DNA of 64,000 bases from a virus (lineage: Duplodnaviria; Caudoviricetes): positions 1 to 64,000 of the IMG/VR virus record IMGVR_UViG_3300028888_000107; one strand, 5' to 3'. The notes under the pieces were generated by a model, which saw nothing but the letters and a program-made list of their open reading frames with translations, was not told the origin of the DNA and did no database searches. Shown piece by piece: positions 7,732-55,997 of the stretch. The position numbers and the translations under genes are program-made. Every line of letters starts with the position of its first letter. Within the stretch, counting starts at the first letter, position 1.

Positions 7732-8259
7732 TTAAATTTCCTTTTTGTGTGAATCAATAAACATTTGACGGTAAACATTACCGTAATAACCTTCAACAGC
7801 CATTGCACGAAGGGCAACGTTTTCATCATATTCACCCAACACAATGTATTCGGTATCTGACGGAGATTCGTTTAAAGCAAGTTCCTTTGTTACATCAACA
7901 TAAACATCCCCCACTTTGTTAAAGGCGTGTTCAATTGGTATTCCAAATGTACTCATAAAACCTTCACAATACAATATGTTATCAAAACCTGTTTCTGAAC
8001 ACATGTGGTATGCGTTTGAATAACATTCCTTTTTCTTTGGACGTACACGTTGCTTTATTTTTTTAATTTCTTCTTCCGTAAACACTTCGTTTAACGGTGT
8101 TATTTTTATTGGTTTGGCGTCTTTTACCATTTTTTCGTAAAACTCTTTTTGAAACCCATCCGAGTTGCTTGCTATAAACTTGTATTGGGTAACAAAGGTG
8201 TTGTAAAAACTTCCACCGTTTTCATTTACGAATTGGTTGTATGTTTTAATCCTGTTCAT
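7732..8259 (-). CDS. Papain/transglutaminase-like (Cys-His-Asp) protein with capsid-targeting-like N-terminus
   Basis: Start reassigned to MNRIKTYNQFVNE; motifs KECYSNA, YCEG, PIEHAF and VDVT give a candidate C-H-D triad. Confidence 0.55.
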   Translation of the reverse strand: MNRIKTYNQFVNENGGSFYNTFVTQYKFIASNSDGFQKEFYEKMVKDAKPIKITPLNEVFTEEEIKKIKQRVRPKKKECYSNAYHMCSETGFDNILYCEGFMSTFGIPIEHAFNKVGDVYVDVTKELALNESPSDTEYIVLGEYDENVALRAMAVEGYYGNVYRQMFIDSHKKEI

Positions 8260-8944
8260 TTTCTTCAATGTGTTTTGTTGTTCTTTTTCTTGTTTTTTGC
8301 TTTGAAACCTCTTCCTTGTACTTGTTGGCGTATTCAACAACAAGGTAGTCAACAATGCTGTTTCTGTGGTTTGTTTTTAGTTCTATGCTTACCATACCCG
8401 GAACCCTATCAACACAATCGCAAATAAACCTAAATCCAGAATCCCCCTTGTGCTTTAAGTCTATTTGGGAAACATCACCGCATATAATCATTTTGGAATT
8501 TAAGCCAATTCTGGTTACTATCATTTCCATTTGCTCATCGGTTATGTTTTGGGCTTCATCAACTATTATGCAAGAATCCAAAAAAGTAAGACCCCTCATA
8601 AACGAAACGGGTGCAATTTCTATTGTGCCATCGTTTAGCCATTGGTCTATTCTAAACTTATCGTAAAGCAAGTAAAAGTTGGTTACTATTGGGGATATCC
8701 AAGGTTGCATCTTTTCCCTTAAGTCACCGGGCAAGTAACCAATATCTTCTTTTGAAACCGTTGGTCTGGTTATTACAATTTTTTTGTATTCCTTTTTTAG
8801 AAAACCATCCAACGCTATTTGACAAGCGAGCAATGTTTTACCCGAACCAGCCTTGCCGTGCAACACCCCTATCGTGTTTTGCAATATTAGTTCCTTTGCT
8901 TGCTTTTGTTCTTCGTTTAGGGTAATTTTGAACTTAACGGACAT
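8246..8944 (-). CDS. phoH: PhoH-family ATPase
   Basis: GKAGSGKT, ITRPTV, IGYLPGDLREKMQPW, FMRGLTF, IIVDEAQN, GDVSQID and HRN, all characteristic of PhoH. Confidence 0.95.
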   Translation of the reverse strand: MSVKFKITLNEEQKQAKELILQNTIGVLHGKAGSGKTLLACQIALDGFLKKEYKKIVITRPTVSKEDIGYLPGDLREKMQPWISPIVTNFYLLYDKFRIDQWLNDGTIEIAPVSFMRGLTFLDSCIIVDEAQNITDEQMEMIVTRIGLNSKMIICGDVSQIDLKHKGDSGFRFICDCVDRVPGMVSIELKTNHRNSIVDYLVVEYANKYKEEVSKQKTRKRTTKHIEENEQD

Positions 8945-8982
8945 TGTAATATTGTATATTTGAAAATTATGGCTACATAAAC

Positions 8983-9007
8983 TTTTGAAACAACCTACGT
9001 TTCAAAA
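8983..9007 (-). terminator. Possible stem-loop downstream of 9012
   Basis: ttttgaaac-aacctac-gtttcaaaa; weak stem, no clear U-tract. Confidence 0.3.
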
Positions 9008-9011
9008 CCCG

Positions 9012-9374
9012 TTATGCCTTAATCCCCAAATAGGTGCAAATGGCTGTTGTCATAATTTTGGATGTGAGCAAACTATACAACGGACCTTGTGTAACACCCA
9101 ACGCCTTGCAAATGGCTGCACCAATTTTTGAGCCAAAGGCAAGTCCGCCAATACCGCCAACCAAGCCTCCTATAATGCCTTCGTTTGCTTGGTCTTCCAT
9201 CATTTTTTCAATGTCGTTGTTGTCAACATCGTTTTCTACGCTTTCCTTAATAAAGGCGATTTCCTTTTCGTTAAGGTTTGTGATTTTTTCATAGAGTTGG
9301 GAAAAAAGAACAAGGGCGTCCTTTTCCAACATTTCATCTTTTTTTATGTCAAAATAGGTTTTTACTTTTTCCAT
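9012..9374 (-). CDS. Small protein with acidic N-terminal half and glycine-zipper hydrophobic C-terminal half
   Basis: Start at MEKVKTY; ...QANE|GIIGGLVGGIGGLAFGSKIGAAICKALGV... Confidence 0.65.
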   Translation of the reverse strand: MEKVKTYFDIKKDEMLEKDALVLFSQLYEKITNLNEKEIAFIKESVENDVDNNDIEKMMEDQANEGIIGGLVGGIGGLAFGSKIGAAICKALGVTQGPLYSLLTSKIMTTAICTYLGIKA

Positions 9375-9388
9375 TTTTATATTGTATA

Positions 9389-9994
9389 TTATTGTTGCCA
9401 AGATTCAAAGTTTTCAATCTCTTTAATTGAAGTATCCCAATCACCGTTAAACTTAAGTCCGTGGTCATCAAGATAAATATCCGCAATGGGCTTGCCAGTA
9501 TCGTTTTGCACGCCATACGGGTTTTCGTTTATGTAGTCATAGGTTATGTTGTTTTGCTTTAGCCATTCCCTTAATTCGGGAGTGTTACCCCTGCAGGTAA
9601 ACACAATAATTGTCCAACCTTGTTCCTTTAGTTTAAGGGTTCCCTTATCGGCATTTTCAACAGGTTTGCCAAAAACATTATCGCCAAGCCAACCTTGCGA
9701 GTAATCATGCAAAACACCATCAAAGTCTATACATATAGTTTTGTTGTGGTCTTCCTTTTTTGCGGGAACCGTTTTTAAATAGGGGTCGTTGAACCTTTCA
9801 TCGGATTGGCAAAAGATACGGTCGCAGATGTCCATATTTTTTTCAAAATAATCAATGGCATCATCTGCATTATCAAACCATTCTATTTGCTCACCGTTTT
9901 TATCATATATTATGTATTGCGTGGCAAAAAAATTGTTCAAAAACGAACCCAAGTCGTTTTCGAACATTTCATTTATTCTTTTAATGTGTACCAT
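9389..9994 (-). CDS. HAD-superfamily phosphatase with capsid-targeting-like N-terminus
   Basis: Start reassigned to MVHIKRINEMFE; motif I ICIDFDGVL, motif II VFTCR, motif III/IV GKPIADIYLDD. Confidence 0.8.
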   Translation of the reverse strand: MVHIKRINEMFENDLGSFLNNFFATQYIIYDKNGEQIEWFDNADDAIDYFEKNMDICDRIFCQSDERFNDPYLKTVPAKKEDHNKTICIDFDGVLHDYSQGWLGDNVFGKPVENADKGTLKLKEQGWTIIVFTCRGNTPELREWLKQNNITYDYINENPYGVQNDTGKPIADIYLDDHGLKFNGDWDTSIKEIENFESWQQ

Positions 9995-10014
9995 CAGGGA
10001 ATTCAAATTTATTA

Positions 10015-10022
10015 TATTTATA
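10015..10022 (-). promoter_or_regulatory. Late promoter TATAAATA
   Basis: Exact match 21 nt upstream of ATG 9994. Confidence 0.65.
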
Positions 10023-21492: not shown

Positions 21493-22425
21493 CTATTTGT
21501 TGTCTAACACGTAATCACTTGTTCCTAAAGTGTGTGGAAGTTTATCGACATAACAATCATAAGCCACTTTTGAAACAATGTTTTTTAACTTGTTTTTGTA
21601 TGTTGTCATTTTATTGTTTATCCATCTTTTAAACCCATCGTATGATTTAAACTTATTGTTTGATAATTTGTTTGCGTATTTAAGAATAAGTTCTTTGTGT
21701 TTGTCATCTTTCACTTCTAAAAATTGTTCGCACCAGCAAAATACAAGTTTGTAATTTTTGTAAAAGTTAGTTCTTTTTATGTATTCCAACACATCGTTTA
21801 CAGATAGAAAAGTTCCATCATATTCCAAAAGTTCGCCTTTTATTGTTCCTATAAACGCATTTCTTTCAAAATCAACAAGCATATACATAACGCTGCCGAC
21901 CATTTTTTCTATTGGGTCATTATTGTTTGTCATTTCAAAATAACCCAAATCCTTTGCAACTTTTTCAAGTGTGTTTCCTTGTTTTCTTAAATTATAATCT
22001 TCATAGGCGTGTTGAAGTTCGTGCATTAATGTACCCAAGTTGACACTTTTTTTGTTTAGTTGAATTTGTATGCTTTGAAATTTTTCACTATTTTTTAATG
22101 TTTTGGTTTTTGAAAAAGCATAGCCCGTTAACCCATCTTCTGTTATGACCAATATAATATTTTTGGTAAAGTTACATTCAGGTGTGTGTACGTTTATTGT
22201 TTTGTCGGATGAACTTTTTGCAATGTTTAACAATTTCCAAGCCAATGCTTCACAATTGTTGAAAACACCATGTTTTTCAAGTATTTTGTTTTTGTTAAAC
22301 CTGTTCTCATTGGAATAATAAAATTGTCTATTTTCATCTCCACAATAAAATTCTATAAACAAATGAGGTTCTAATATATTATTATAATTTATTAAAAATT
22401 CATCAAATTTTAAAATTTTATTCAT
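21493..22425 (-). CDS. Zincin-like (HExxH) protein with capsid-targeting-like N-terminus, paralogue A
   Basis: MNKILKFDEFL; LMHELQHAYED; downstream ERNAF Glu. Confidence 0.6.
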   Translation of the reverse strand: MNKILKFDEFLINYNNILEPHLFIEFYCGDENRQFYYSNENRFNKNKILEKHGVFNNCEALAWKLLNIAKSSSDKTINVHTPECNFTKNIILVITEDGLTGYAFSKTKTLKNSEKFQSIQIQLNKKSVNLGTLMHELQHAYEDYNLRKQGNTLEKVAKDLGYFEMTNNNDPIEKMVGSVMYMLVDFERNAFIGTIKGELLEYDGTFLSVNDVLEYIKRTNFYKNYKLVFCWCEQFLEVKDDKHKELILKYANKLSNNKFKSYDGFKRWINNKMTTYKNKLKNIVSKVAYDCYVDKLPHTLGTSDYVLDNK

Positions 22426-22436
22426 TTATGCGTTGT

Positions 22437-23393
22437 TTATATTTTTGAATTTATGTAATTTGTCATAGCTGTGGAATCCGCAAACCCTTTTGACATTTTT
22501 TCCGAAAACACTTCGTATGCCATTTTTGGTATAATTGTGTTAAACTTTCTTTTGTAGGAATACAACATGGCATTCAACCATCTTTTAACATCTTTATATT
22601 CCATAAAATAGAAATTTGTAATTTTGCCCAAATAATTCAAAACCTTTATCTTATCCTCTTTGTTTTTTATTTCCAAAAATTCGTTTGTCCACTCAAACGC
22701 ATCTTCGTATTGCTGGTAAAAACCCGTGCTTTTTATAAAATCGCAAACAGAATTTATTGTTGTAAACTTTTTCGGGGATTCCATAAGTTCCCCATATATG
22801 GAATTTATGTATGCGTTTCTTTCAAAGGATGTGTACAAATAAACCAATTTGTAAAGTTTGCGTTCCATTGTGTTTGATGGTTTGGAAAGGTTTACCATTA
22901 GTTTTTTGTAGCCAATTTTTTCCAATTTTTTATCGGTGCTTGAACCTTTTTTTCTTAATTCACAATCCTCTTTTGCGTGTTGAAGTTCGTGCATAATAAC
23001 CGATAATTTTAACTTGTCTTTTGATGAAATTATTATTGTTATTTCATCAAACAAACCTTCGTTTTGGTTAAACACAGACTCGTTATAGGCATAGGCGGCA
23101 ACCCCAAAAACATCTTCATCATATTCAACAATAACCTTTTTTGCCACATTGTTGGCGGGCATTTCTATTGTTATTGTTGAATGGTTTTTTAGTTCAACAC
23201 CTTTTGCCTTTTTTATAATTTCTTCGGACATTTCCAAGCATTTGTCAAAAATGCCGTATTTTTCAAAAAGCGTAGTTGTTGATGTCAAGGACTCACCAAT
23301 ATATAGAAAATTTCGGTTTTCATCACCGTAATAAAATTCTATAAAAAGGTGAGATAAAAAAACTATTGCCAGATGCTTTTTCATATTCTTCAA
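22437..23393 (-). CDS. Zincin-like (HExxH) protein, paralogue B
   Basis: IMHELQHAKED and ERNAY; shares HLFIEFY.GDENR and EK.G.F with paralogue A. Confidence 0.6.
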   Translation of the reverse strand: MKNMKKHLAIVFLSHLFIEFYYGDENRNFLYIGESLTSTTTLFEKYGIFDKCLEMSEEIIKKAKGVELKNHSTITIEMPANNVAKKVIVEYDEDVFGVAAYAYNESVFNQNEGLFDEITIIISSKDKLKLSVIMHELQHAKEDCELRKKGSSTDKKLEKIGYKKLMVNLSKPSNTMERKLYKLVYLYTSFERNAYINSIYGELMESPKKFTTINSVCDFIKSTGFYQQYEDAFEWTNEFLEIKNKEDKIKVLNYLGKITNFYFMEYKDVKRWLNAMLYSYKRKFNTIIPKMAYEVFSEKMSKGFADSTAMTNYINSKI

Positions 23394-23426
23394 AACTTAA
23401 AATTCTTCCCATAACCAAATTTGGTT

Positions 23427-26776: not shown

Positions 26777-27274
26777 ATGCACATTTTTAGAATAAACGAA
26801 ATGTATTCCGTCCATCCAGAAAACTTGGGTGAATTTAGGGAATACCTTATGCAAAACGGTTACGAAATTGAAGAAAGGGAAACAAACCACGAATACAGGG
26901 GCAGTAAGAAAGGCATTATGATATGTGTAAAGGATAAAAAAAGACCCAACTACACCATTTGCTTTGATTTTACATCCGATAAACCCAATGCGTATGAATT
27001 TTTGTATTTTGTTGAAAAGGATGGTGAAAAAGACAACTTCTTTTACATAGGAAGCACAATGGAAATAGAATACGTTAAGGATTTGAACCTTTTGCTTGAT
27101 GTGAAGGGAACATATAAAAAGTATTTTGTGGATTATAGAAAAAAGATGTTAAAGAAAGCGGAAGCCGCTTACAAAAGGGATGTTATGAAAAACGGACGCT
27201 TTGCTTCCGATTATGATTTGGAAATAGCACGTGAAAAACTTAAATTGGCTGAACAAAAATATAATAATATATAA
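26777..27274 (+). CDS. Hypothetical late protein with capsid-targeting-like N-terminus
   Basis: MHIFRINEMY. Confidence 0.6.
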   Translation: MHIFRINEMYSVHPENLGEFREYLMQNGYEIEERETNHEYRGSKKGIMICVKDKKRPNYTICFDFTSDKPNAYEFLYFVEKDGEKDNFFYIGSTMEIEYVKDLNLLLDVKGTYKKYFVDYRKKMLKKAEAAYKRDVMKNGRFASDYDLEIAREKLKLAEQKYNNI

Positions 27275-37959: not shown

Positions 37960-37962
37960 AGT

Positions 37963-38334: not shown

Positions 38335-38344
38335 AACCTTTAAT

Positions 38345-38960: not shown

Positions 38961-38973
38961 AATGGCAATGTGT

Positions 38974-39648: not shown

Positions 39649-39660
39649 ACCACTTGTTTT

Positions 39661-39739
39661 TAATTACACCGCAAAAATACAAAACTTTTTAATATATGCA
39701 ACTTTTGCTACAAAAAAGTTATTAACATTGTTATTAACA
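39661..39739 (-). promoter_or_regulatory. Early promoter cassette copy 4
   Basis: taattacaccgcaaaaatacaaaa...tatgcaac...gttattaacattgttattaaca. Confidence 0.8.
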
Positions 39740-39752
39740 TAACCAAAATTGG

Positions 39753-44266: not shown

Positions 44267-44286
44267 TTCGTGTATGTTTTGAAAAT

Positions 44287-44316
44287 AAAAAAGGTTGGCA
44301 AGTAGCCAACCTTTTT
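44287..44316. terminator. Bidirectional rho-independent terminator
   Basis: aaaaaa-ggttggc-aagta-gccaacc-ttttt between convergent genes. Confidence 0.9.
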
Positions 44317-44338
44317 GTTTATAAATACATTTGCGTTT

Positions 44339-44983
44339 TTAGATCTCTTCGTATTCATAGAAGCAACCGCTGTAGCCGTTTGCAGCCGCATTGTTGGAAG
44401 CGTTGTAAAGGTTTTTAACCAAACTTTCAATGTTCTTTGGATTGGTGTTAATCTTTTTGTTGCCTTTTTCGTGTTCGTAACTTTGTCCGGTTTCAAGGGT
44501 GTATTTGTAATACTTAACCAACTCTTCCAAAGTTCCTTCGTGAGTGTAAACACTATCCTTGCCAAACATTCTTGATTTGGTTTGGGTAATTCTGTAAACC
44601 TTCTTTCCTTTATCCTTGCCAATTATTTTGTTAAGAATTTTTTCAAGGGTACCGTTTGTTATATCATCTTTTTTAATATAAGTGTCTTTGGCAACCAATT
44701 TCATGGATTTTAAAAAAGGTTCCTTTGTTTTTTCATCCGTTTGTTTTGGAAAGGCAAACCAACAAAGTATTTCGTTTGTGTATTCTTTTTCATAACCAAC
44801 AGCCAAATAAACACTTGGGTTATCCATTTCACCGTAAATTGGAAACATTGAGGTGTGTTCCATCTTTTCGGCTGAAACAATGGCTTGACTTGCCATTTCA
44901 ACTATTTGTTTTGGTGTATAGGCAAGTTTAATTTGGCTTGCCCCCTCCACCATATATTCATTAAGTTTTAATATTCTTGACAT
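44339..44983 (-). CDS. Hypothetical late protein with capsid-targeting-like N-terminus
   Basis: MSRILKLNEYMVE. Confidence 0.6.
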   Translation of the reverse strand: MSRILKLNEYMVEGASQIKLAYTPKQIVEMASQAIVSAEKMEHTSMFPIYGEMDNPSVYLAVGYEKEYTNEILCWFAFPKQTDEKTKEPFLKSMKLVAKDTYIKKDDITNGTLEKILNKIIGKDKGKKVYRITQTKSRMFGKDSVYTHEGTLEELVKYYKYTLETGQSYEHEKGNKKINTNPKNIESLVKNLYNASNNAAANGYSGCFYEYEEI

Positions 44984-44999
44984 AATTGTTTTCTATATA

Positions 45000-45917
45000 T
45001 TAGTAGTATAAAAGTTTACCATTATCCAAATCGTAAACTTCACCGCTAAAGGTGCTTAAAAAGAATTTAGGTCCATCGTTATCAACAACAATTTTAACAA
45101 GTTTTTCCCATTGGTTGTTGTCAATTATTGCATTGGCTTCATCTTCCCCAACACCGGCTCCAACCAAATAGGATTTCCAATCTTCATCGCTCATTGCACC
45201 TTTCACAAGGTCAACCGCATTTTGGTGGTCATCACCGCTTAACACACTTTTTGCTGCATCTTCTTCGCTATTAAAAATACTGCCGTTGCAACCGTTTTTT
45301 GTTACAAAGTAGGTATCGGTAAGCCATTCAATGCCATCAACATCAGCACCAATTTCACCAAGTTTGCTTATAACCAGTGCTTTGGTTTCTTCCGCTTCTT
45401 GGTTGTTAAGGTTTTCTTTGATAAACTCATCGATTTTTAAAATATAAACCCCTTTGCTTTCTTGTAATTTTTGGGATGGTCTTGCCACTTGGGTAAACTT
45501 GTATTTGTTGGTTTGCCAATCAAACGATGCCATGCAATAACCATTATCTTCCACCCAATTATCTTCTTCATCATAATAGCCCCCATCTGAATTTTCATAA
45601 CTTGCAAAAGGTTGTTGTTCAAATCCCTCGCCAAGTCCATCGGAACATTGTCCGCTTACCCATTCGGAAATCTTATCAAGGGTGGCGGGAAGCAATTTAT
45701 CGTTTGCCGTTAGAACAATGCTTCCTGTATCGTTACTTGTCATTGTCCAATAAATATCTTCAACTTTATCAATTTCTTCTGGAGCAACCTTATCATTACG
45801 CAGGGAGTCCAAAAGGTATTTGGTCATATCATCTTCTTGCAAATAATCGTTTGCTTCTTGAATATCCAAAACGGGACAATCAAGGTTAAAGTTTGTTTTG
45901 TAATAAACGTTTCTCAT
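45000..45917 (-). CDS. Two-domain hypothetical late protein with an internal tag-like motif
   Basis: SGQCSDGLGEGFEQ motif; internal LQESKGVYILKIDEFIKE. Confidence 0.6.
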   Translation of the reverse strand: MRNVYYKTNFNLDCPVLDIQEANDYLQEDDMTKYLLDSLRNDKVAPEEIDKVEDIYWTMTSNDTGSIVLTANDKLLPATLDKISEWVSGQCSDGLGEGFEQQPFASYENSDGGYYDEEDNWVEDNGYCMASFDWQTNKYKFTQVARPSQKLQESKGVYILKIDEFIKENLNNQEAEETKALVISKLGEIGADVDGIEWLTDTYFVTKNGCNGSIFNSEEDAAKSVLSGDDHQNAVDLVKGAMSDEDWKSYLVGAGVGEDEANAIIDNNQWEKLVKIVVDNDGPKFFLSTFSGEVYDLDNGKLLYY

Positions 45918-45930
45918 ATTTTTAAATGTA

Positions 45931-46374
45931 TTATTTTTTCAATTTTATTCCAAGCATTCTTGAAACATCCTCGCCCCAATTTCGGTGGTGGGTGTTTGGC
46001 AACACAACAAACAAATGGGAACCCGTTCCAATATGTTTCATAATGTTGTTACTGTAAATGGCATTGACAAATTCATCTTCATTCACTTCCCTCATTATTC
46101 TATCATACAAAAACGACTTTAGACATTTTTCAATCTCAACCATAACCTCTCTATCAATAAAACCGTTTTTATTATTTTCATAATACTTATTTATGTACTC
46201 GTAAAAATCAATTGTATCATGAATAAAGTATTCGTTGTAAAAAGTGCCATACACCGCAACAAGCCCATTTATAGTCATTTCATAAACGTAGTTTCCAATG
46301 CCAAGCACAAGATCTTTTAAGGTGATATTATTTCTTTTTGTGTTAATTTCGTTAATCTTTTTTATGTGTGACAT
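45931..46374 (-). CDS. Hypothetical late protein with capsid-targeting-like N-terminus
   Basis: MSHIKKINEI. Confidence 0.6.
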   Translation of the reverse strand: MSHIKKINEINTKRNNITLKDLVLGIGNYVYEMTINGLVAVYGTFYNEYFIHDTIDFYEYINKYYENNKNGFIDREVMVEIEKCLKSFLYDRIMREVNEDEFVNAIYSNNIMKHIGTGSHLFVVLPNTHHRNWGEDVSRMLGIKLKK

Positions 46375-46389
46375 AGTGGTTTTTATATT

Positions 46390-46989
46390 TTATTCAGCCA
46401 AGAACCTTATTAACACATCAGGTCTCCCATACAAGCCATAATTCCAATTAGGTTCGGCATATTGTTCATCAAACATTGTTTTAAGGTAAATCACAGTAAA
46501 CCCGTTTCTTTCGTAAAATTCGCTTAAAAAACCATCGTAATGGTCAACCGTATTACCCCCGTTTTTAATGGCGTATCTTATAATAGCATCGCCAACACCC
46601 CCAATGTTTTGTTCATTGTTGTGCAAGGACACTATTTCACAACGCATTCTTGTACCCATTTTTGTTTGCTTTAACGCAAACCCAATATCATATCCCTTTA
46701 GTTTAAAAGTTTTAATTCCAAGTTCCTTTAATTCCTTTTCGTTGTATTTGGTTAAAAATTCAGTTCTTTCTGATTTGTAAGCCGATTTCAAAAAAGAAGC
46801 ATAGTTGTTTATTTCCCAAGAATCATCAATTCCAATAAGTTTTTTTACTTTGTTGCTTAATTCAACATCAAACACTTTTTCCAACAAAATTTTATCGCAC
46901 AAGAAACTGTTATGGGAACACTCCTTGTACAATTCCTTCATACATTGCGTGTTAAATACAAACTCTTCAAAAAGCATAATTCTTTTCAT
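46390..46989 (-). CDS. GNAT-like protein with capsid-targeting-like N-terminus
   Basis: MKRIMLFEEF; EIVSLHNN, GVGDAII..AIKNGG..VDHYDGFL..FYERNGF and W....GRPDV. Confidence 0.55.
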   Translation of the reverse strand: MKRIMLFEEFVFNTQCMKELYKECSHNSFLCDKILLEKVFDVELSNKVKKLIGIDDSWEINNYASFLKSAYKSERTEFLTKYNEKELKELGIKTFKLKGYDIGFALKQTKMGTRMRCEIVSLHNNEQNIGGVGDAIIRYAIKNGGNTVDHYDGFLSEFYERNGFTVIYLKTMFDEQYAEPNWNYGLYGRPDVLIRFLAE

Positions 46990-47003
46990 AATAGCAAAAT
47001 TTT

Positions 47004-47612
47004 TTAATCGTTGTAATGCTCAATTTTTTGGTACATATCATACATAATGTCAAAGAAAGGTCTTGTTATGTAATATGTTTTCATTTTGTTCCAATTGGTT
47101 TCTTTGTCCAAACCATCATCAAAATGAAAAACACTCATAAACCAATAAAAATCGTTTCCCATTAGAAGAAGGTCGTAAAAGAAAAATTCCAAAAAACCAC
47201 GTTTGTTTGTTGGCAACTCATCGTCATTAAAGGTAACAACAACACCATCTATAACGGTTAGATATTTGTCTTCTGCATCATAACCGCCTTCATTGTTAAG
47301 AAGGTCAAACACACCTATGCCGTTATCGTTTATTAGTTTAACCGCTTCGCTTGAATTGTTTTCACATATTTGGGGGCATTTGTCTTTGTATTCAACAACC
47401 TCGTTGTAAAGACCCAGCAAATCATCTATTTTTACAAATTCTTCAAAAAGCCTTTGGGCATCATCGGCAAGGTATGGATAATTCATTTTAAATTCATACT
47501 TTGCATCAATACCCATTTGAATTCGGTTATCTACAAAATTTCTTAAAAAACGTTTTCCCATTGTTGTGTTGCTTTCCCCAATAAATTGTGAAAAAGATGA
47601 AAGTTTTTTCAT
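47004..47612 (-). CDS. Hypothetical late protein with capsid-targeting-like N-terminus
   Basis: MKKLSSFSQFIGE. Confidence 0.6.
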   Translation of the reverse strand: MKKLSSFSQFIGESNTTMGKRFLRNFVDNRIQMGIDAKYEFKMNYPYLADDAQRLFEEFVKIDDLLGLYNEVVEYKDKCPQICENNSSEAVKLINDNGIGVFDLLNNEGGYDAEDKYLTVIDGVVVTFNDDELPTNKRGFLEFFFYDLLLMGNDFYWFMSVFHFDDGLDKETNWNKMKTYYITRPFFDIMYDMYQKIEHYND

Positions 47613-47630
47613 TTTATAAAGTGTTTTTTA

Positions 47631-47638
47631 TATTTATA
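47631..47638 (-). promoter_or_regulatory. Late promoter TATAAATA heading the 47612-44339 operon
   Basis: 19 nt upstream of ATG 47612. Confidence 0.75.
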
Positions 47639-47654
47639 AAAATTGCAAAATCCA

Positions 47655-47966
47655 CTATTGTTTAAAAATTAGGTTTAATATGCCCAACAACAAATCTTGT
47701 TCCTCCTTTACACGTTTAATCATGTGGCGGTAGTTTCTTTTGTTTTTCGGGGTGTTTTCCACACATACGTGCCTGCTACCCCTGCCCAATGCGTAAAATT
47801 GTGTGTGGTAGTGCTCGCTTAATTTCTCAAGCGAATTATCGCAAGCATCGTTCCACACGTATTCCATAACACCATTGGGAACTTCCCAAAGCAAACGCCT
47901 ATCGGAAAGTTCAAGCATATCCTTTCTTAACTCTTCCGAGTAGTAGGTGTTAAATTGCGTTTTCAT
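47655..47966 (-). CDS. Hypothetical protein
   Basis: 103 aa; GRGSRHVCV. Confidence 0.55.
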   Translation of the reverse strand: MKTQFNTYYSEELRKDMLELSDRRLLWEVPNGVMEYVWNDACDNSLEKLSEHYHTQFYALGRGSRHVCVENTPKNKRNYRHMIKRVKEEQDLLLGILNLIFKQ

Positions 47967-48243
47967 ATTTTTTCAATTTGTTTAAAATGTTTTCCAAGTT
48001 GATGTTGTTGTTGGAGTACAGAGGCATTTCGCCATCGGAAATAGCCAAATGGTATCTTAATTCGTTAAACACCCCGGTTGCCCTGTGGTTGAACCTGATT
48101 TCAAAGCAAATTCTTTTGCCATCACGCAAGTTGATTGCAACAACGTGTCTTGGGTTGGGCTCGCCATTGTGGTAGGTTTCGTAAGAGGTGTATTTAATAC
48201 CTGCTTTTTCCAAATGCTTTTCAATTTCTTTGTGTGCTAACAT
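47950..48243 (-). CDS. Hypothetical protein
   Basis: 97 aa. Confidence 0.55.
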   Translation of the reverse strand: MLAHKEIEKHLEKAGIKYTSYETYHNGEPNPRHVVAINLRDGKRICFEIRFNHRATGVFNELRYHLAISDGEMPLYSNNNINLENILNKLKKYENAI

Positions 48244-48268
48244 AACTTTTATTTTTTAATTGTTATAC

Positions 48269-48661
48269 TTATTGTTCATTGGCGGCAACTGCCAAGCCGT
48301 TTTGGGTTTGGGCTGCATAGTTCACTTTCCACACCTTGCCTTCCTTTACATAAAGGTTTTTGGAAATGGCTTGGCGGGTCAACTGTCCTGCGTACTTACC
48401 AATCTTTTTGAAAAGGATTGCCACCTGCTTGTCGGTAAGCGATTTTCTTCTTTCAAATTGCTTGCAAAAAGATGTAAGCAATTCGGCATCCGTTCCGGCA
48501 AAGCCAACACCGTTAAGGTTATCCACCGTACCGCAAGCCTTTTCATCTTCGGTTTGGTACTCGTAAATCCTTAACAGTGCCTTAATTGCACGGTTTTTTT
48601 CAGTGGTAATGGCGGCTTTAATTGCCATTTCAATTTCCTTTTTGCTTTTGTACTCTTTCAT
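48269..48661 (-). CDS. Conserved jumbo-phage-type hypothetical protein
   Basis: RAIKAL..IY..QT.DE...NGVGF...DA..L...LTDKQ...KY..QL. Confidence 0.6.
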   Translation of the reverse strand: MKEYKSKKEIEMAIKAAITTEKNRAIKALLRIYEYQTEDEKACGTVDNLNGVGFAGTDAELLTSFCKQFERRKSLTDKQVAILFKKIGKYAGQLTRQAISKNLYVKEGKVWKVNYAAQTQNGLAVAANEQ

Positions 48662-48693
48662 AATTTTTGGGTTTTAGGATTAGTTATTACTTT

Positions 48694-48772
48694 TAATTAC
48701 ACTGCAAAAATACAAAAATATTTTATATATGCAACCTTTTAGCAAAAAAAGTTATTAACAAAGTTATCAACA
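48694..48772 (-). promoter_or_regulatory. Early promoter cassette copy 8
   Basis: Same cassette with TTATTAACA and TTATCAACA boxes. Confidence 0.8.
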
Positions 48773-48864
48773 ACGCCCAAATGTTAAAAAGTTAAAAACA
48801 CACTTGTTTGGATATATGTAGTATATAAAACATATTTAGAAATATGCACCATATAATTAATATT

Positions 48865-50814
48865 TTAATCATTACAGTTTAATGTATATGTAACTTGCCC
48901 ACAATCCCAAACGGGAAGATATCCGTTGTTTTTCATTATTTCTTCATTACTGCTGCCTTTTCCAAAAGTTGTTCCAAGCAATCTATCCGCACCGTGTATA
49001 ACAAGCAAATTGTTTGTAATATGTCGTTTCCCGTTCCACCAATGCAAACTTGGGTTTGTTTCTTTTATCTTTTCAAAACCAAGACTTTCGTAAACGTTTC
49101 CAACAAACTTTGACAAATCGCAATAACTTACAATGTTTTTTGGATTTGTGTCTTTTTTAAAAAAATCAAACAATCTTTTTGAACCTCCAACAACAAGAAA
49201 TTTTGATTGTGCGCATAGCCTTAACAATTCCCATTCATAGTTCTTGTTGTATCTTGGCTTTCCGAATGACATAAGTTGAATAAGAACACCGTTATGATAA
49301 AGCCCGTAGGATTTTTCAACCCCTCTGCAAGAACCCTGCAGATGCCATAAATTTAAAAATTCAACGGCTTCGTTTTTTGCAACGGTTTTAATTTCACAAC
49401 TTCTTGCATATATTACCGTTTTTGGCATTAGCAAACCAATTATTTTGGAAATATCGTCCCAATCCCAGACATGAACACATCTGTAGCCGGCTTTTTGAGC
49501 GGCCAATGTTTTGCTTTTGTGATAATCTTGCCTTAACGGTTTACCCCCAAAAACATTAACAAGCGAATTGTGTGTGATGGTTGGGTTTATTTCAACAAGA
49601 ATATTTTCTATTTTAAAATCGTATGAATATCCGTTTATGTGAAACTCTCTTTCATGCTTAATTCCGGCATTTGTCAAAAGTTCGGAAAACCTTTTGTTTG
49701 GCTTGCTATCGTTTTTGTAGCCAAGCCTTGCTTCCTTACGTTGGCAACACCAATCAACACCGTATCTTTCTTGGTTGGTTAGCCTTGTTTTTTCTCTTGT
49801 TTCTTGATTTTGTGAGGTGTAGGCGCATCCATACCTTTTAAAATTGGTTTCCTTTGTTTTTCTTTTAACTTCTTCGTTTTGTGTTGGATATGGTGTTCCG
49901 TATTTTTTAATGTTAGTTTCCCTTGTCTTTGCTTCAGTTTCAATTCCATGCAAAGAACAAGCATTTCCATATTTTTCAAGGTTTGTGTTTTCTATTCTTT
50001 TCTTTCCTTCTTCGGTCTGCTGATAGTAATCCTTTCCATATAACTTGTTGTTGGTTTCCTTTACCTTTTCTTTAACAACAACACTTTGTGATGGATGGTT
50101 TGTGTTGTAATGCGTTTGTGATGTTTTCTTTGCCTTTTCCTTCACAACAACGCTTTGCATACTGTATTCGCAGCCAATGTTTTTCAAGTTTGTTTGCCTT
50201 GCCTTTTCCTTGGTTTTGTTTAAAGAAAAAACATTTTCAACACCATATCGTTTTAGGCAAGTTTCTTTGTTTTTTTCTTGGTTGTTGTAATTAGTGTCTC
50301 CATACCTTTTTAATTTGGTTTCTTTTGTTTTTTCTGAGTTTGAATATGTTGGCGAACCGTATTTCTCTGTTTTTGTTTTTTGTACCTTTTCTTGTGTTTC
50401 CTTTAGTTTTTGCGGGTTATCAACACCGTATTTTTTCAAACAAGTTTGCTTTGCGCCATGTCTGTTATTGTAGTTCTTGTTACCGTATTTTTGTAAACAG
50501 GTTTCTTCTTTTTTTAGTAAAATTTCCTTGCTTTTTTGCGCATGGCTGTTGCAACAATATGTGTTGTAGCCTTTTTTAAACCCGTTAAACGAACAACGCT
50601 TCCCACAATGGCAAACACCTATTTTTAAATCTTTATCGTTTAGTAAATAATGGTAAAGTTTTTGCCTAAACGAAAATTCTTTGGGAAACAACCAAGTTAA
50701 CATAACAGCATATTCATCAGGAAATGTTTCGGAAAACCCCTTTTCTTGTATTTGGTTTAAACCTCCCTTGCTTTTTGGAAGCAATAACAAATTGTATATT
50801 TCTTCTTTTGTCAT
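48865..50814 (-). mobile_element. Free-standing homing-endonuclease-like gene 1 (Zn finger, 23-aa KYG repeats, Vsr-like nuclease, Mom-like GNAT)
   Basis: CHCGK..YCC; about 12 T..KYG repeats; YSYDFKI..ILVEIN...VHVWDWD; IYARSCEI..HLQG..WELLRLC..SYCD..VYESLGF. Confidence 0.7.
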
Positions 50815-50832
50815 AAGGTATTTATTTGTTTG

Positions 50833-50862
50833 CAAAGATACAAAAAAATCAAATACAGCAAA
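50833..50862 (-). promoter_or_regulatory. Bacteroidota-type promoter (TTTG...TATCTTTG) for endonuclease 1
   Basis: TATCTTTG at 50840-50833 with TTTG about 18 nt upstream. Confidence 0.5.
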
Positions 50863-50864
50863 AC

Positions 50865-50895
50865 AAAAAACCCGCTCACTTGTGAGCGGGTTTTT
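50865..50895. terminator. Rho-independent terminator of the major capsid gene
   Basis: aaaaaa-cccgctca-cttg-tgagcggg-ttttt. Confidence 0.9.
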
Positions 50896-50920
50896 ATAGT
50901 GTCCCCATTAAGGGGTTGGG

Positions 50921-52672
50921 TTAAATCAAACTAACACCATCGTTTAATTTAATGCCAAAGGTGTAATATTGCACCTGTGGATGTTGTCCAGCTTCCACAA
51001 CAGCAAACCTACTCTTCATAGAAATTGCGGGAGCAAACGTAAATTCGGAAACAGTTTCCACCTTATCTGCGAGAAGATACGGCATGAATACAATACCGGG
51101 TTCGTTTTCTTTGCCTTTTCTGCCTACGCAAACCCTGCCATCGCTGTAAGCCATGTTAGGATCAACATAGATGCTAATGCCAGCCAAGTTGCCAATAGGA
51201 TACAAACTGTTACCGTTTGCGCTAATGGTGTTGGAAAGAGGATAAGGAACGAAACCAGCGCAATCTTGCAAAGCGGTTCCAATCATACCGGAAACCACTG
51301 CAAATGTGCCTTGTCCCCTACGACCCCTAACAGCAATAATGTTAGAAGCGGCAATAATTTTGGTCATAATCCTTCTTTGGATTGTACCCATAACTTCGCC
51401 ACCCATAGAAACATTGGTAGGAGTAATCTCACCAGTCTCAATAGGATTGCCTTCTTTGTCAAAACCTAACCACAATTTTTCAGGTGTAGTGGTTGTGCCA
51501 TCGCAGAAAATAGCGGAAATGTTGTTTTTACCTTCAACTTCCTCAATCTGCATAGCATTCAAAGCACCCAAGTTGAACATCTTTTCAAGGATGAGCTTGT
51601 TGATGCATTGGGTCAACTCGTTAACCAAAGCAGCCTCTGCCTGTGCAACGGCGTCAATGCCAAATTGTTTAAGGTCTTGAACCTGCTCACGAGTAATGGC
51701 ACTGTTAACTTGGAAAGTCTCAGCCTTAACATCCAAAGTGTAGGATTTCAAGCCAATCTGCCTACCGGCTGTTGCTTCGCCCATTTCCCTTGTGTAAGGG
51801 TTATTGGAAGTAACATTTCCTTTAACAAAACCTTCGCCACTGAAAGAAGTAACGTGGTCTTCAAATGCCCTAACCAATTCAACACCCTCTGATTTTTCAA
51901 CGGTCAAAGCGGTTTCTTCAGAACCTTCGCCTTTTTCAACCAAAGTGTAGGTACCGTCTGCCAAACCTTCGAAAAGTTCGTAAATTGGGGTCTCAGCACC
52001 TTCGCCACCCAGCATGTTGTTACCTTTGAAATAGGTTTTTTCCAAAACCCTAAACATAGGTTTGCCATCAATACGAGCGGGATAAATAAATGTTAATTCA
52101 TAATCATCGTTGCCTTGGAAAGCGTATTTTGCATTAGGTTTGAAAGTGTATTTCTCACCATTAACAGTAACACCGCTAATCATACCCTTAATCATATAAG
52201 GAGATGCTGTGTTCTTGTTTCCAAAAGGATTGGAAGTGGTTTCCCAACCGCCTTGGTTGTGCAACCTGCCACCTTCGTAAACATAGTCAAGGTATTGCAA
52301 CAAACCGTGAGGTCCTTGCATTGGAACAACGGGAACAAGGTCCAAAGCGATTGTCTGAGCTGCAACTTGCAAAGCAAGAGGAAGCACGCTGTAAACATTG
52401 TCACCGCTACCTGCCAAAGAAGGAGTGTAAGAGTTGGTTGTACCGGCTTGCGGGAAGGTGATAGCACCCATGCCACCGATGTTCATATTGGGGTTCAAAT
52501 GGACGTGTCCATCAACCGCCTCATTAACCATTTGTTTGTCATGCAAATCATGCAAGTAAGCATATTTTGCAATCCAGTTTACTTTAGAAGCATCTTGAAT
52601 ACCAAGGGATTCCTTGATGTGCTGACCCCATGAATTCATAATTTGCGCTTCGTTCAATTGAATTGAGTACAT
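50921..52672 (-). CDS. gp23: T4 gp23-like major capsid protein
   Basis: AAQTIALDLVPVVPMQGPHGLL, IDAVAQAEAALVNELTQCINK, RGRRGQG.F.V.S, G.LAG.SIYVDP, G..FMPY and MKSRFAV. Confidence 0.95.
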   Translation of the reverse strand: MYSIQLNEAQIMNSWGQHIKESLGIQDASKVNWIAKYAYLHDLHDKQMVNEAVDGHVHLNPNMNIGGMGAITFPQAGTTNSYTPSLAGSGDNVYSVLPLALQVAAQTIALDLVPVVPMQGPHGLLQYLDYVYEGGRLHNQGGWETTSNPFGNKNTASPYMIKGMISGVTVNGEKYTFKPNAKYAFQGNDDYELTFIYPARIDGKPMFRVLEKTYFKGNNMLGGEGAETPIYELFEGLADGTYTLVEKGEGSEETALTVEKSEGVELVRAFEDHVTSFSGEGFVKGNVTSNNPYTREMGEATAGRQIGLKSYTLDVKAETFQVNSAITREQVQDLKQFGIDAVAQAEAALVNELTQCINKLILEKMFNLGALNAMQIEEVEGKNNISAIFCDGTTTTPEKLWLGFDKEGNPIETGEITPTNVSMGGEVMGTIQRRIMTKIIAASNIIAVRGRRGQGTFAVVSGMIGTALQDCAGFVPYPLSNTISANGNSLYPIGNLAGISIYVDPNMAYSDGRVCVGRKGKENEPGIVFMPYLLADKVETVSEFTFAPAISMKSRFAVVEAGQHPQVQYYTFGIKLNDGVSLI

Positions 52673-52775
52673 TTCGTTTTTTTATATATTCTTTTAAGTT
52701 ATTTTAAATACTTCATTCACACTCAAGTTCTTTTCTTCTATAACCTAAAGGAATTTCGTATTTTGTTTCACAATA

Positions 52776-52783
52776 TATTTATA
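52776..52783 (-). promoter_or_regulatory. Late promoter TATAAATA for the capsid gene (second copy at 52823-52830)
   Basis: Two exact matches in the intergenic region upstream of gp23. Confidence 0.7.
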
Positions 52784-52872
52784 ACACTTAATTTTTGTGT
52801 TATTTTTACTCTGTTTTTATTATATTTATAAATGTAAGAATTTGTAATTGTTTTTCATTATAATTCTTTGCA

Positions 52873-52880
52873 TATAAATA
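52873..52880 (+). promoter_or_regulatory. Late promoter TATAAATA for endonuclease 2
   Basis: Exact match just upstream of ATG 52888. Confidence 0.5.
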
Positions 52881-52887
52881 TGTTAGT

Positions 52888-54903
52888 ATGTTAGCAAATG
52901 TTATTGAAACAACTGATAGAAACACACTTTTTAAGTATTTTCTGCAAAAGCCAAATCCTGACAAAAATGGAAGGCTAAAGCAAGAAAAGTGGTTTTCACA
53001 ATATTTTCCAGAAATCTACAAAGATTACAAAAAAACTGTTTTCGCAAAAGAAGCAGACAAGATGAAGTTTTCTCAAAAACTTTGGCATTTTTTACAATAT
53101 GATGAACAATTGTGTCTTGGCAAATGCAAAGAGTGTGGAAAGCGCACATCCTTTATAAGTTTTGCAAGCGGGTACTTAACATTTTGTTCAACCGAATGTT
53201 CAAACAAAAACAATGAAACAAAAGATGCCATTAAAAGCACCCTTATACAAAAATACAACGGTGTGGGTTTTGCTTCACAACAAATATCAAACAAATTTAA
53301 AAAAACCATGACCGATAAATATGGTTGTGAATATTCGGCACATTCAAACGAAATAAAAGAAAAAACAAAAAAAGTTAATCTTGAAAAATATGGAGGCACC
53401 GGTTTTGCTTCAGACATAACAAAAAGGTTGTTTATAAAAACAATGAATGAAAAATATGGTGTTAACTATTCTTGGGAATCCGAGGAATTGCGAAACAAAA
53501 CATATAAAACAAGCAAAGAGCGTTATGGTAATCCACATTACACAAATAAAGAAAAAGGCATTCAAACCCATTACAACAAAATAATAAAAAACTCAAAAGA
53601 CATCTTAAAAATAGAACAAGATTACTATGTGTGCAAATGCACCGAGCCTACTTGTGAAAAATGTGTGGAAAAGACCTTTAAAATAAGCAAGCAATTATAC
53701 TATATGAGAAGCATAAACGGTGATGTTGCTTGTGTAAAACTAAATAACCCAAAAAGCAAGAACACAAGCAACGATGAAAGAATTGTTTATGACCTTGTTT
53801 GCGAACTTTACAAAGGGGAAGTGCAAAGAAACAACAGAAAGGAACTAAACAAAAAGGAAATAGATATATACTTGCCCGAACTAAAAAAGGGAATTGAATT
53901 TAACGGTGACTATTGGCACAACAACCCCAACACAATGTTTGATGCGGAAAGGATGGATGTTTGGGAAAAGGATGAACAAAAAGAATTTTTAGCCAACCAA
54001 AACGGAATAGAAATTTTGCATATATGGGAAAACGAACTATCGGATATTGAATACGTCAAGTACAAAATAGCAAGGTTTGTTAAATCCACAACACCAAAAA
54101 CATCAGCATACTACAAGTTAAAAACCTTTTTGGATGGGTTGCAATCACAATATGTTGAAAACGTGTTTGGGGAGTTTGAATACAACAATGTTGTTGTTAA
54201 ATATGTCAACGCCTTTTACTACAACAACGCCACCACAAAAGGTTCCTTTTTTGCAAATTCGGAAAAGCGTGTAATTTACGCATACGATTACGAGGTAAAC
54301 GATGATAGAAAGTTTGGCGTCTTAAAATCCCAAATAGAGCATTCGCTTGGACTTACCAAAACAAAAATATACGCAAGGAATTGTGAATTGCGTGAAATAA
54401 CAAACCAACAAGCCAAACCCTTTTTGGAAGAAAATTCCTTGTATGGGTACAGGGGTGCAACAATAACGCTTGGTTTGTTTTACAAAGGCGAACTTGCAAT
54501 GGTTTACAGTTTTGGACATAATTACTATGGAAGAAAGGGTGCTTTGGAAGCCATTCGTGTATGCACCCTAAAAAACGTTGTTGTGGTGGGGGGAAGCAGC
54601 AAATGCCTTTCGTATTTCCTTAAAAAGTACGCACCAAGTTACAAGGGCAACAAACTTGTGTTTTACGTTGATAAAATTCACCAAGATGGAAAATCCTTAA
54701 AAGGTTTTAACTTTGTTCACCATTACGATGGTGTAATGAACTATTGGCTAAAGGAAAACTTTGGTGGAGCTTTGTATGGTGAGGCTGGAACCGCCTTTGG
54801 CAGAAACCCTTCCAAAAACAAGGAAATTGCAAAGTTGGAAAAAGATGGATACATTGTTTCGGTTCCAACTGTCGGTGTGGATGTTTATGAAATGGTTTTA
54901 TAG
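52888..54903 (+). mobile_element. Homing-endonuclease-like gene 2 (Zn finger, KYG repeats, Vsr-like domain, degenerate second domain, Mom-like GNAT)
   Basis: CKECGK..FCS..C; KEIDIYLPE..GIEFNGDYWH..LHIWENE; KIYARNCELREI..EAIRVC..VGGSSK. Confidence 0.7.
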
Positions 54904-54960
54904 ATAAAATTCCAATAAAAATAACAATTTATTGGCTGTTTTGGTTAAACTTTTTGGATT

Positions 54961-54971
54961 TTTTATTATAT
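54961..54971 (+). promoter_or_regulatory. TTTTATTATAT motif upstream of gp55
   Basis: 26 nt upstream of ATG 54997. Confidence 0.4.
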
Positions 54972-54996
54972 ATTATATAGATATACAGCACTTCAA

Positions 54997-55371
54997 ATGG
55001 GAAGGAAAAAAGGAAAACATTATATTGACCCAAAAGAGTTTTACGATGAAATGGTCATATCTTTGGAAAAAGATGAATTAACACCCAAAGCAATCCAATT
55101 TTGCCAAGAAATAATAGATAGAACTGCAATGTGCAACCACTATGATTCCAAAGAAGATTTGGAAGATTGCAAGGCATACGCAATGTTCAACATTTTAAGG
55201 TATTGGCGTAACTTTAACCCCGCCTTGTACGATAACCCATTCTCTTATTTTAGTTCATACAGCTGGACGGGGCTTTCGCAAGGTTGGAATATTTTGCACC
55301 CCAAAAAGGAAAGCGGATACACAAGGATTAGCATAAACGATTTGGATGACGGAGGGGATAAGGATTACTAA
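54997..55371 (+). CDS. gp55: T4 gp55-like late sigma factor
   Basis: KHYIDPKEFY, FNP....NPFSYFS and the Y..EDL.DC..A region are typical of gp55 homologues; matching TATAAATA promoters are present. Confidence 0.8.
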   Translation: MGRKKGKHYIDPKEFYDEMVISLEKDELTPKAIQFCQEIIDRTAMCNHYDSKEDLEDCKAYAMFNILRYWRNFNPALYDNPFSYFSSYSWTGLSQGWNILHPKKESGYTRISINDLDDGGDKDY

Positions 55372-55382
55372 AACCCGCAAAT

Positions 55383-55649
55383 ATGAAAATTGCAATTGAA
55401 GATTGTGTTAAGGTTCTTGGCAGGGGAACTGTAATAGTATGCAACCCACCCGAAGAACTTTTTGAATATGTAGATGACTTTTGTTATGCTTGCAAAATAA
55501 AATCGGGTGAAACAATAACAATAGATTCTTTAAGGTACATAATAAAAGGTGTTGAACAATTATCAACAAGCAAAAGTGTTGGACTTGTTATAAGCGGTAT
55601 TGGCGATTGCAACAAACTTATAGGAAAGAATTTTGAATATTTGAAATAA
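55383..55649 (+). CDS. Small hypothetical protein
   Basis: 88 aa. Confidence 0.55.
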   Translation: MKIAIEDCVKVLGRGTVIVCNPPEELFEYVDDFCYACKIKSGETITIDSLRYIIKGVEQLSTSKSVGLVISGIGDCNKLIGKNFEYLK

Positions 55650-55677
55650 AAAAGGGGCAATTTGTGTTGCCCCTTTT
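55648..55677. terminator. Bidirectional rho-independent terminator
   Basis: aaaaaa-ggggcaa-tttgtg-ttgcccc-tttt. Confidence 0.9.
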
Positions 55678-55697
55678 GTTTTTTGTTTGTGCTTGGA

Positions 55698-55997
55698 TTA
55701 ATCGTAAATTTCCTTTTCAAGTTCAAAAACATCACGTGTACTTACTTCTATTTTAAAAGTAACATTGCCACCGTTGTTAAAAACAAGTTCAACCGTGTTT
55801 TCTTTTTCGTTATATATGTAGTCTTCGTAAAAAACATCTTTTCCATGTGCAACTGATTCATAAAATTCTTCAAAGTTGTCATATTCGTTTTTTAGGTTTA
55901 AAATATCAACCATTTCTTTTGACAATATGGTGATTTTCATATCCATTTCACCACCGTTTACGTCCATCATTTCATTTATCTTTTTAATGTGTGTCAT
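55698..55997 (-). CDS. Small acidic late protein with capsid-targeting-like N-terminus
   Basis: MTHIKKINEMMD; TATAAATA at 56017-56024. Confidence 0.6.
   Translation of the reverse strand: MTHIKKINEMMDVNGGEMDMKITILSKEMVDILNLKNEYDNFEEFYESVAHGKDVFYEDYIYNEKENTVELVFNNGGNVTFKIEVSTRDVFELEKEIYD

Follow-up and report, generated by a model that had tools for sequence, protein, structure and literature searches.

A shared N-terminal leader on unrelated late proteins of a T4-type huge phage, comparable to the T4 capsid-targeting sequence

A common leader on unrelated late genes

The window analyzed here covers positions 1 to 64,000 of an IMG/VR viral contig of 78,597 bp (IMGVR_UViG_3300028888_000107), in which a dozen unrelated late proteins begin with a common leader of 10 to 13 residues. 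The contig is ~33% complete by CheckV and represents about one-third of the genome of a T4-type huge phage. Its major capsid protein (MCP) gene (50921..52672, minus strand) matches PF07068 (E value, 2.5e-33) and phrog_138; the Gp23 domain, matched from residue 97, is preceded by ~95 N-terminal residues. A gp20-like portal gene at 68381-70072 (phrog_213; E value, 4e-64) is another T4-type head feature, and the contig also codes for a tail tube protein, a gp5-like hub, a gp32-like single-stranded DNA-binding protein, a gp46-like nuclease subunit, and a gp55-like late sigma factor (54997..55371, plus strand; phrog_234; E value, 9e-7). DNA of this contig is present in sheep, goat, and bovine gut metagenomes (16 studies). 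By MCP, the nearest relatives in GenBank are LR756500.1 (462 kb; 44% identity), the Lak megaphages (32%), and Sphingomonas phage PAU and Tenacibaculum phage PTm1 (30%). A megablast of positions 44000-56100 against GenBank phages gave no match, and an MCP search of IMG/VR returned two distant loci only, with 37% identity. The nearest near-complete relative is the IMG/VR genome IMGVR_UViG_3300031998_000001 (G001; 387,654 bp, 93% complete, 49% GC), whose MCP and portal are 58% and 69% identical to those of the contig.

The original prediction had named nine N-termini carrying the motif, and all of them were present at their coordinates; in every case the start is the first ATG of a long open reading frame (ORF). 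Further copies were found at 70088 (plus strand) and 77206 (minus strand), both outside the window, and, all on the minus strand, in a frameshifted gene at 23412, in diverged form at 6453, and internally at 45414-45449. A regular expression for the core motif gave 12 matches within the first 7 residues (in 11 of the 103 called ORFs), where ~0.5 was expected by chance, versus 16 in the other ~24,400 residues. When the first 16 residues of all ORFs were compared with one another, 21 N-terminal pairs reached a BLOSUM score of at least 25, versus no pair among random internal 16-mers. With a position-specific scoring matrix (PSSM) built from 12 leaders, these scored 15 to 22 bits and the best background 10, except for the one internal copy (19.5). 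Leave-one-out scores ranged from 1.3 to 17.3, and the three weakest members (47612, 46374, and 23412) fell to 1 to 4, so that their membership rests partly on context. Leader codons vary synonymously (ATT/ATA, AAC/AAT, TTC/TTT, AGG/AGA) and replacements are conservative, which points to a constraint acting on the protein.

Such a motif might be fortuitous, or it might have been inherited within a paralogous family or come from a biased N-terminal composition. The genes at 21493 and 22437 are indeed paralogs, those at 7732 and 9389 share ~13 residues beyond the leader, and N-termini of AT-rich phages are rich in Lys, Ile, and Asn. However, after trimming of 14 residues the 13 bearers of the contig fell into 12 unrelated families, with 21493/22437 as the sole related pair; the folds of the bearers differ, and the leader is enriched 50- to 150-fold at the N-termini of two other genomes, whose GC contents are far apart. 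Chance or shared ancestry is, in our opinion, extremely improbable and close to refuted.

The leader genes are linked to a putative late promoter, the box TATAAATA. The exact copies that had been reported at 10015-10022 (minus strand), 26751-26758, 47631-47638, and 56017-56024 were all confirmed. The one-mismatch version TATAAACA at 22434-22441 is also there, but it lies 16 nt from the ATG instead of the usual 26 to 28 nt. The caution that the box arises by chance in AT-rich DNA was justified, with 22 copies versus ~19 expected, i.e., no overall over-representation; nine or 10 of them are located 26 to 28 nt ahead of a start codon. The association with leader genes, also part of the original prediction, held up: the box is found within 60 nt upstream of 5 of the 11 tagged ORFs versus 7 of the 92 untagged ones (odds ratio, 10; P = 0.003), and most of the remaining leader ORFs belong to operons headed by it (47612->44339, 9994->7732, and portal->70088). 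None of the genes behind the early-promoter cassette described below has the leader. The gp55-like sigma factor is the likely reader of TATAAATA, and its presence, the spacing of the box, and the linkage are all features of late expression at the sequence level. Contigs from a sheep gut metatranscriptome match the MCP gene (50903-52298; word depth, 56 to 75) and the leader cluster (44332-47039; 5 to 8) without differences, versus a flat depth of ~13 in the DNA run; one RNA-library contig covers 44332-44804, again without differences, and none covers 48808-50100. These contigs, which cannot rank expression and could include DNA carry-over, are at best a hint of late-gene expression in vivo.

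Leader-bearing genes and their predicted products

Two classes of leader can be distinguished. Type B (...Y-N-E-F-I-N-E) is similar to the start of the T4 internal proteins, while type A (M-x-H-I-K-[KR]-I-N-E-M) is nearer to the N-terminus of gp24, the vertex protein of T4. Both are found in the operon headed by the TATAAATA box at 10015-10022. Its first leader gene (9389..9994, minus strand; 201 aa; MVHIKRINEMFE, type A), with the box 28 nt upstream, codes for a protein with a HAD-like phosphatase domain, in agreement with the HAD phosphatase of the original prediction; matches to phrog_1238 (E value, 5.1e-27) and phrog_415 (E value, 9e-6) and a DFDGV (DxD) motif at residue 90 bear this out. 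The other (7732..8259, minus strand; 175 aa; MNRIKTYNQFVNE, type B) belongs to a large viral family without known function. In ESM Atlas relatives, which are ~10 aa shorter, the alignment begins only at residues 15 to 18, and the ortholog of this protein in G001 starts with MVRKYNEYRLLE. For a papain-like protein, also named in the original prediction, no support was obtained with any tool used, including family searches and the ESM Atlas. The two proteins of this operon share ~13 more residues right after the leader (GGSFYNTFVTQY and LGSFLNNFFATQY), which may be a second shared module or the mark of a recent leader transfer.

The 310-aa product of 21493..22425 (minus strand; MNKILKFDEFLIN) is zincin-like, with an invariant HELQH motif and a downstream Glu; H135, E136, H139, and E187 are invariant in the 13 sequences of the family. 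The zincin assignment is by motif only (HExxH and the downstream Glu), and fold searches provided weak metallopeptidase matches: in the AlphaFold2 (AF2) model a beta-sheet lies ahead of the motif helix, the Foldseek metallopeptidase matches have E values of 0.2 to 1, and those of the VIA search are dominated by the C-terminal helical bundle. The leader is present in the closest homologs, P0001 (98% identical, on a 139-kb contig) and P0002, and absent from 16 distant ones, which begin ~10 aa ahead of the conserved HLFIEFY. Another homolog, P0007, starts with MSNLDNLISEDKL. A paralog with 36% identity is located at 22437..23412 (minus strand), with the leader MGRILSFEEYEK (in 23323-23412) in a different frame from the body (22437-23384) and a run of seven T (23356-23362) in between. 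A one-base change in the length of this run would join leader and body, and in the homolog P0002 the start MGRILSFDEFMEE is in a single frame; the frame break may stem from misassembly or from slippage, or the gene may be a pseudogene. At 26777..27274 (plus strand), downstream of the box at 26751-26758, a 165-aa ORF starts with the type A leader MHIFRINEMYS.

The densest group of leader genes is the minus-strand cluster running from 47612 to 44339. Its first gene (47004..47612; 202 aa; MKKLSSFSQFIGE, type B), preceded by the box at 47631-47638, has the weakest leave-one-out score. Next comes a 199-aa protein (46390..46989; MKRIMLFEEFVFN) that fits the GNAT of the original prediction. The fold could be corroborated at borderline E values, since the top Foldseek matches of the AF2 model were all GNATs (E value, 1e-3 to 1e-2; probability, 0.94 to 1.0; TM score, 0.31 to 0.54); a GNAT fold is supported by the model, and acetyltransferase activity is a prediction only. 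There was no Pfam or PDB sequence match for this protein, and PDB searches with the GNAT-like and zincin-like family profiles gave nothing below an E value of 0.1. The GNAT-like model has a predicted local distance difference test (pLDDT) score of 80. In both AF2 models, residues 1 to 14 lie outside the fold with a pLDDT below 50. As for the zincin-like family, close GNAT-like homologs keep the leader and distant ones are devoid of it. Taken together, the distant homologs without leader in both families, the Atlas relatives that begin to align at residue ~16, and the position of residues 1 to 14 outside the modeled folds indicate that the leader is modular.

Downstream in the cluster are a 147-aa leader ORF (45931..46374; MSHIKKINEINT, type A) and a 305-aa ORF (45000..45917) that has no leader at its N-terminus and carries instead an internal copy, VYILKIDEFIKE, at residues 157 to 168 (45414-45449; PSSM, 19.5), with a GTT codon at the Met position. 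Its residues 157 to 305 are 41% identical to a stand-alone leader-bearing protein of 151 aa in G001 (350929-351384) and, judging from this match, the ORF is an in-frame fusion in which the former leader has become internal. The 156-aa acidic N-terminal part gave no match. It may represent a long pro-region in which processing occurs at an internal site, or else a dead fusion; a contig of an independent RNA library bridges the internal leader site unchanged. The cluster ends with a 214-aa leader ORF (44339..44983; MSRILKLNEYMVE, type B).

The remaining bearers are more scattered. A 99-aa ORF (55698..55997, minus strand; MTHIKKINEMMD, type A) follows the box at 56017-56024. Close to the beginning of the window, a 463-aa, coiled-coil-rich late protein (5062..6453, minus strand), with TATAAATA 27 nt upstream, starts with the diverged leader MKDYILLSEDFIRS, while its G001 ortholog (47% identity) has a clearer one, MATHIFSVNEYQTALE (PSSM, 9.7); it is a candidate head-core or internal protein. 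Beyond the window, a 103-aa type B ORF (70088, plus strand) is the immediate downstream neighbor of the portal gene, a position that in T4 belongs to the core genes 67 and 68, and a further type B leader, MLVKNYNEFINE, is located at 77206 (minus strand).

Similarity to the T4 capsid-targeting sequence and distribution in relatives

In T4 (NC_000866), the internal proteins (IPs) IPII and IPIII start with MKTYQEFIAE/A, IPI with MKTFKEFTST, and gp24 with MAKINELLRE/S. The capsid-targeting sequence (CTS) of this phage is known on IPI, IPII, and IPIII and in the propeptides of Alt and gp24 (Mullaney and Black 1996, summarized in PMC9026906, PMC3012670, and PMC5694885), and the internal proteins of T-even phages are a diverse set sharing nothing else than a CTS (PMC3012670, PMC9026906). 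A gap-free alignment (PSSM, 7.1 bits) is obtained between the T4 CTS and the leader core I-K-x-[FYIL]-[ND]-E-[FMY]-[VILM]-x-E, with T4 Met1 on the conserved Ile. T4 Y4 and F7 fall on conserved aromatic or hydrophobic columns, and I8 and E10 on the aliphatic and Glu columns; residues 4 and 7 of the CTS are reported to govern targeting and residues 8 and 10 processing (PMC9026906). Type B leaders (8259, 44983, 47612, 70088, and 77206) have the full set of targeting and processing determinants, and MLVKNYNEFINE shares six of nine positions with KTYQEFIAE.

The leader is not restricted to this contig. Of the 542 ORFs of G001, 34 scored at least 10 and approximately 10 more look like weaker leaders (about 34 to 45 in all). 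PSSM scores of at least 12 were found at 28 of 2,710 N-terminal versus 8 of 113,931 internal positions, i.e., a 147-fold enrichment, and the 34 bearers fall into 31 unrelated families after trimming of 14 aa. The late-promoter link is repeated there, with TATAAATA upstream (29 to 37 nt) of 19 of the 34 leader ORFs versus 65 of the 508 others (odds ratio, 8.6; P = 1.7e-8). In the first 250 kb of LR756500.1 (24% GC), at least 15 ORFs start with MKYIKEYEEF[IV]xE, with a 53-fold enrichment of matrix matches at N-termini. In IMG/VR, 20 stretches, concentrated in very large contigs, matched a degenerate DNA pattern of the type A leader. All five of the large IMG/VR contigs tested from this pattern search had a match to Peptidase_S77, the family of the gp21-type prohead protease, four of them above the Pfam cutoff. 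The family (PF03420) is present in G001, G002, G003, G004, LR756500.1, and PTm1; in the last two, it is above the cutoff and sited between the portal and capsid genes. In G001, the S77 domain is encoded at 380818-382878.

At the level of single genes there is little in common, most bearers of the contig having no ortholog in G001 or LR756500.1. The GC content of relatives sharing the leader goes from 24% to 49% (~35% in the window), a large spread for one phage clade. Our literature search, of incomplete coverage, retrieved no description of leaders of this kind in huge phages of the Lak or PTm1 type. PTm1 (AP019524.1) has ORFs starting with a different shared motif (RKLYSVISENFIVE, MKKLYDHISENLVTE, MKLFETINESF), at 208828-209517 (minus strand), 224211-224432, 139854-141695, 141765-142505, 81708-82109, and 148753-149277; by eye, KLYxxISENFxxE can be seen on ORF-293, ORF-307, and others. 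This may be the leader of that lineage.

A conserved N-terminus could also be the recognition site of a process unrelated to the capsid, such as modification by an enzyme, chaperone binding, delivery to a membrane or compartment, or the initiation of translation, and genes for radical-SAM enzymes do occur in G001, G002, and LR756500.1. However, the contig has no radical-SAM gene, and the single one of G001 (at 301.6 kb) is >13 kb away from any of its 34 dispersed leader genes. Codon variation and conservation of the leader across 24 to 49% GC argue against a signal at the RNA level, its hydrophobicity is too low for a signal peptide, and the in-register similarity to the T4 CTS includes the mapped determinant positions (PMC9026906). 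We give a recognition site of this kind a small chance.

Proposed role in head assembly and genomic surroundings

Rather, the leader is quite likely the version of the T4 CTS used by this phage lineage. The central claim of the original prediction, a CTS equivalent on unrelated late proteins, has been partly supported, by comparison: the alignment with T4, the T4-type head and late apparatus, the link to late promoters, and the protease of the relatives favor it. From sequence we infer a scheme of binding to the core, cleavage, packaging, and ejection, and equally any effector role. The gp55-type sigma factor would transcribe the leader genes late from TATAAATA promoters, along with the head genes. 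The short amphipathic leader, with M-x-[RHK] in front of its core, would bind the scaffolding core of the assembling prohead, and the attached protein would be enclosed whatever its fold. A gp21-type (Peptidase S77) prohead protease, which we assume this phage has because its relatives encode one, would then cut after the Glu of an [ILVMF]-x-E site within the leader. The mature protein would stay in the head with the DNA and would probably be released into the host upon infection. Leader proteins are, on this comparison, probably loaded into the phage head.

Several observations weigh against the leader being a CTS. Matrix and regular expression score the very ORFs from which they were built, and the cross-genome tests are the independent ones. 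Type A leaders (HIKRINEM...) have no [ILV]-x-E at columns 8 to 10 and only I-N-E, an I/L-x-E at columns 4 to 6. No gp21-type protease was detected on the 78.6-kb fragment, itself about one-third of a genome, either with PF03420 or by tblastn with the PTm1 protease-scaffold protein and ORF-299; the gene might be on the 139-kb contig that contains P0001, a longer piece of this phage. PTm1 has the protease yet no N-terminal match to the leader matrix, and the protease-scaffold protein of LR756500.1 has no leader-like repeats (best score, 4.5). Finally, the bearers (91 to 574 aa) are acidic, with a median pI of 5.5 here and 5.2 in G001, while T4 internal proteins are basic, and the small, basic, DNA-associated character of the classical IPs is not found among them. 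It should be noted that this character belongs to the T4 IPs and not to the function of the CTS, since Alt and foreign fusions are also packaged.

A more restricted role is conceivable, in which the leader is a prohead assembly and propeptide signal and the proteins carrying it belong to the head core, are scaffold-like, or serve as decoration; they would be degraded or retained like T4 gp67 and gp68 and would not be delivered effectors. The 103-aa ORF at 70088 occupies the place of the T4 core genes, the coiled-coil protein at 5062-6453 and its G001 ortholog carry the leader and are conserved, the bearers are acidic as core proteins are, and most of those in G001 lack a Pfam enzyme domain (ten were run against Pfam, with no family above the cutoff). 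Against this, proteins with a HAD-like domain, a GNAT fold, or an HExxH motif would make poor scaffolds, and the strong differences between the sets of relatives, with the shortage of orthologs mentioned above, fit accessory cargo and not core structure. We consider a purely structural role unlikely, if somewhat less so than a recognition site for a non-capsid process.

If the leader is a CTS, its parallels with T4 are manifold: late proteins that have nothing in common but a short N-terminal leader; Y/F at position 4, E at 6, F at 7, I/V at 8, and E at 10, in register; a T4-type head and late promoter and, here in the relatives, a gp21-type protease; and sets of cargo that vary between related phages, with T4 Alt as a precedent for enzyme cargo. 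There are also differences. Three extra residues (M-x-[RHK/Y]) precede the core, with a conserved Ile where T4 has Met1, and two classes coexist, one IP-like (B) and one gp24-like (A; HIKRINEM). There are at least 13 bearers in 78.6 kb, and 34 to 45 among the 542 ORFs of the 388-kb relative, versus a handful in T4. They are acidic instead of basic, dispersed over the genome, and derived from ruminant gut metagenomes. The ejection and inner-body proteins of phiKZ, 201phi2-1, and SPN3US have N-terminal propeptides mostly of 80 to 130 residues, with an A/S/G-x-E motif (PMC5694885). In those phages, too, head-internal proteins are cut after Glu by a prohead protease related to that of T4, and diverged paralogs have conserved N-termini; however, their propeptides are not a common short tag, whereas the leader of 10 to 13 residues is T4-like. 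Polyvalent proteins, to which the system had been likened, are a functional analogy only, in the idea of several enzymatic activities delivered with the DNA: they are single giant multidomain polypeptides, whereas the bearers here are separate ORFs of 98 to 463 aa that share nothing but the leader.

The principle is already established for T-even phages and is used here on a much larger scale, an extension of known biology. That leaders match the T4 CTS in register in T4-type phages so distant from one another, and at 24 to 49% GC, suggests that the core-targeting mechanism may be old and portable. Huge phages of gut Bacteroidota have not been cultivated, and for most of their genes no function is known; should the leader act as it does in T4, proteins traveling in the capsid could be read from sequence, about a dozen on this fragment and some forty in the near-complete relative. 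They would be the first phage products to meet the host defenses, a focused list of candidate counter-defense or takeover proteins, and such leaders could be relevant for loading proteins into capsids. More speculatively, the leader might be an address label readable from sequence, from T4 to ruminant gut megaphages, that marks ~8% of the genes as head cargo, with two classes routed to different fates and with the internal copy in 45000-45917 serving as the site at which processing releases a cargo domain from a long pro-region. In such a scheme, type A bearers might be associated with the shell or vertex and retained, and type B bearers associated with the core and ejected. So extended, the proposal appears doubtful to us.

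A promoter cassette of the TTTG...TAnnTTTG type, TTTTGTATTTTTGC..GTAATTAAAAAC, recurs ahead of early genes, upstream of 16661, 18415, 20605, 39648, 41322, 42401, and 43159; its TAnnTTTG element is of the Bacteroidota type. Shine-Dalgarno sites are missing at the start codons. From these two features we take the host to be presumably a member of the Bacteroidota.

The order of the head genes is broken up compared to that of T4, PTm1, and LR756500.1 (portal, protease-scaffold, MCP), with 68381-75523 of the contig (L001 4381-11523) separated from the MCP gene at 50921-52672. The portal is followed by the 103-aa leader ORF and then by a 1,704-aa protein without known function (G001 ortholog at 35584-40338), while the MCP gene is ~16 kb away. 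A second gene of the Gp23 family (gp24-like) was found in none of G000, G001, and LR756500.1. Four large paralogs matching phrog_3339/559 (labeled "homing/HNH endonuclease"; DUF7487) flank the MCP and gp55-like genes, at 48865-50814 (minus strand), 52888-54903 (plus strand), 56028-57725 (minus strand), and 57728-59962 (minus strand), one of them with an early-type promoter.

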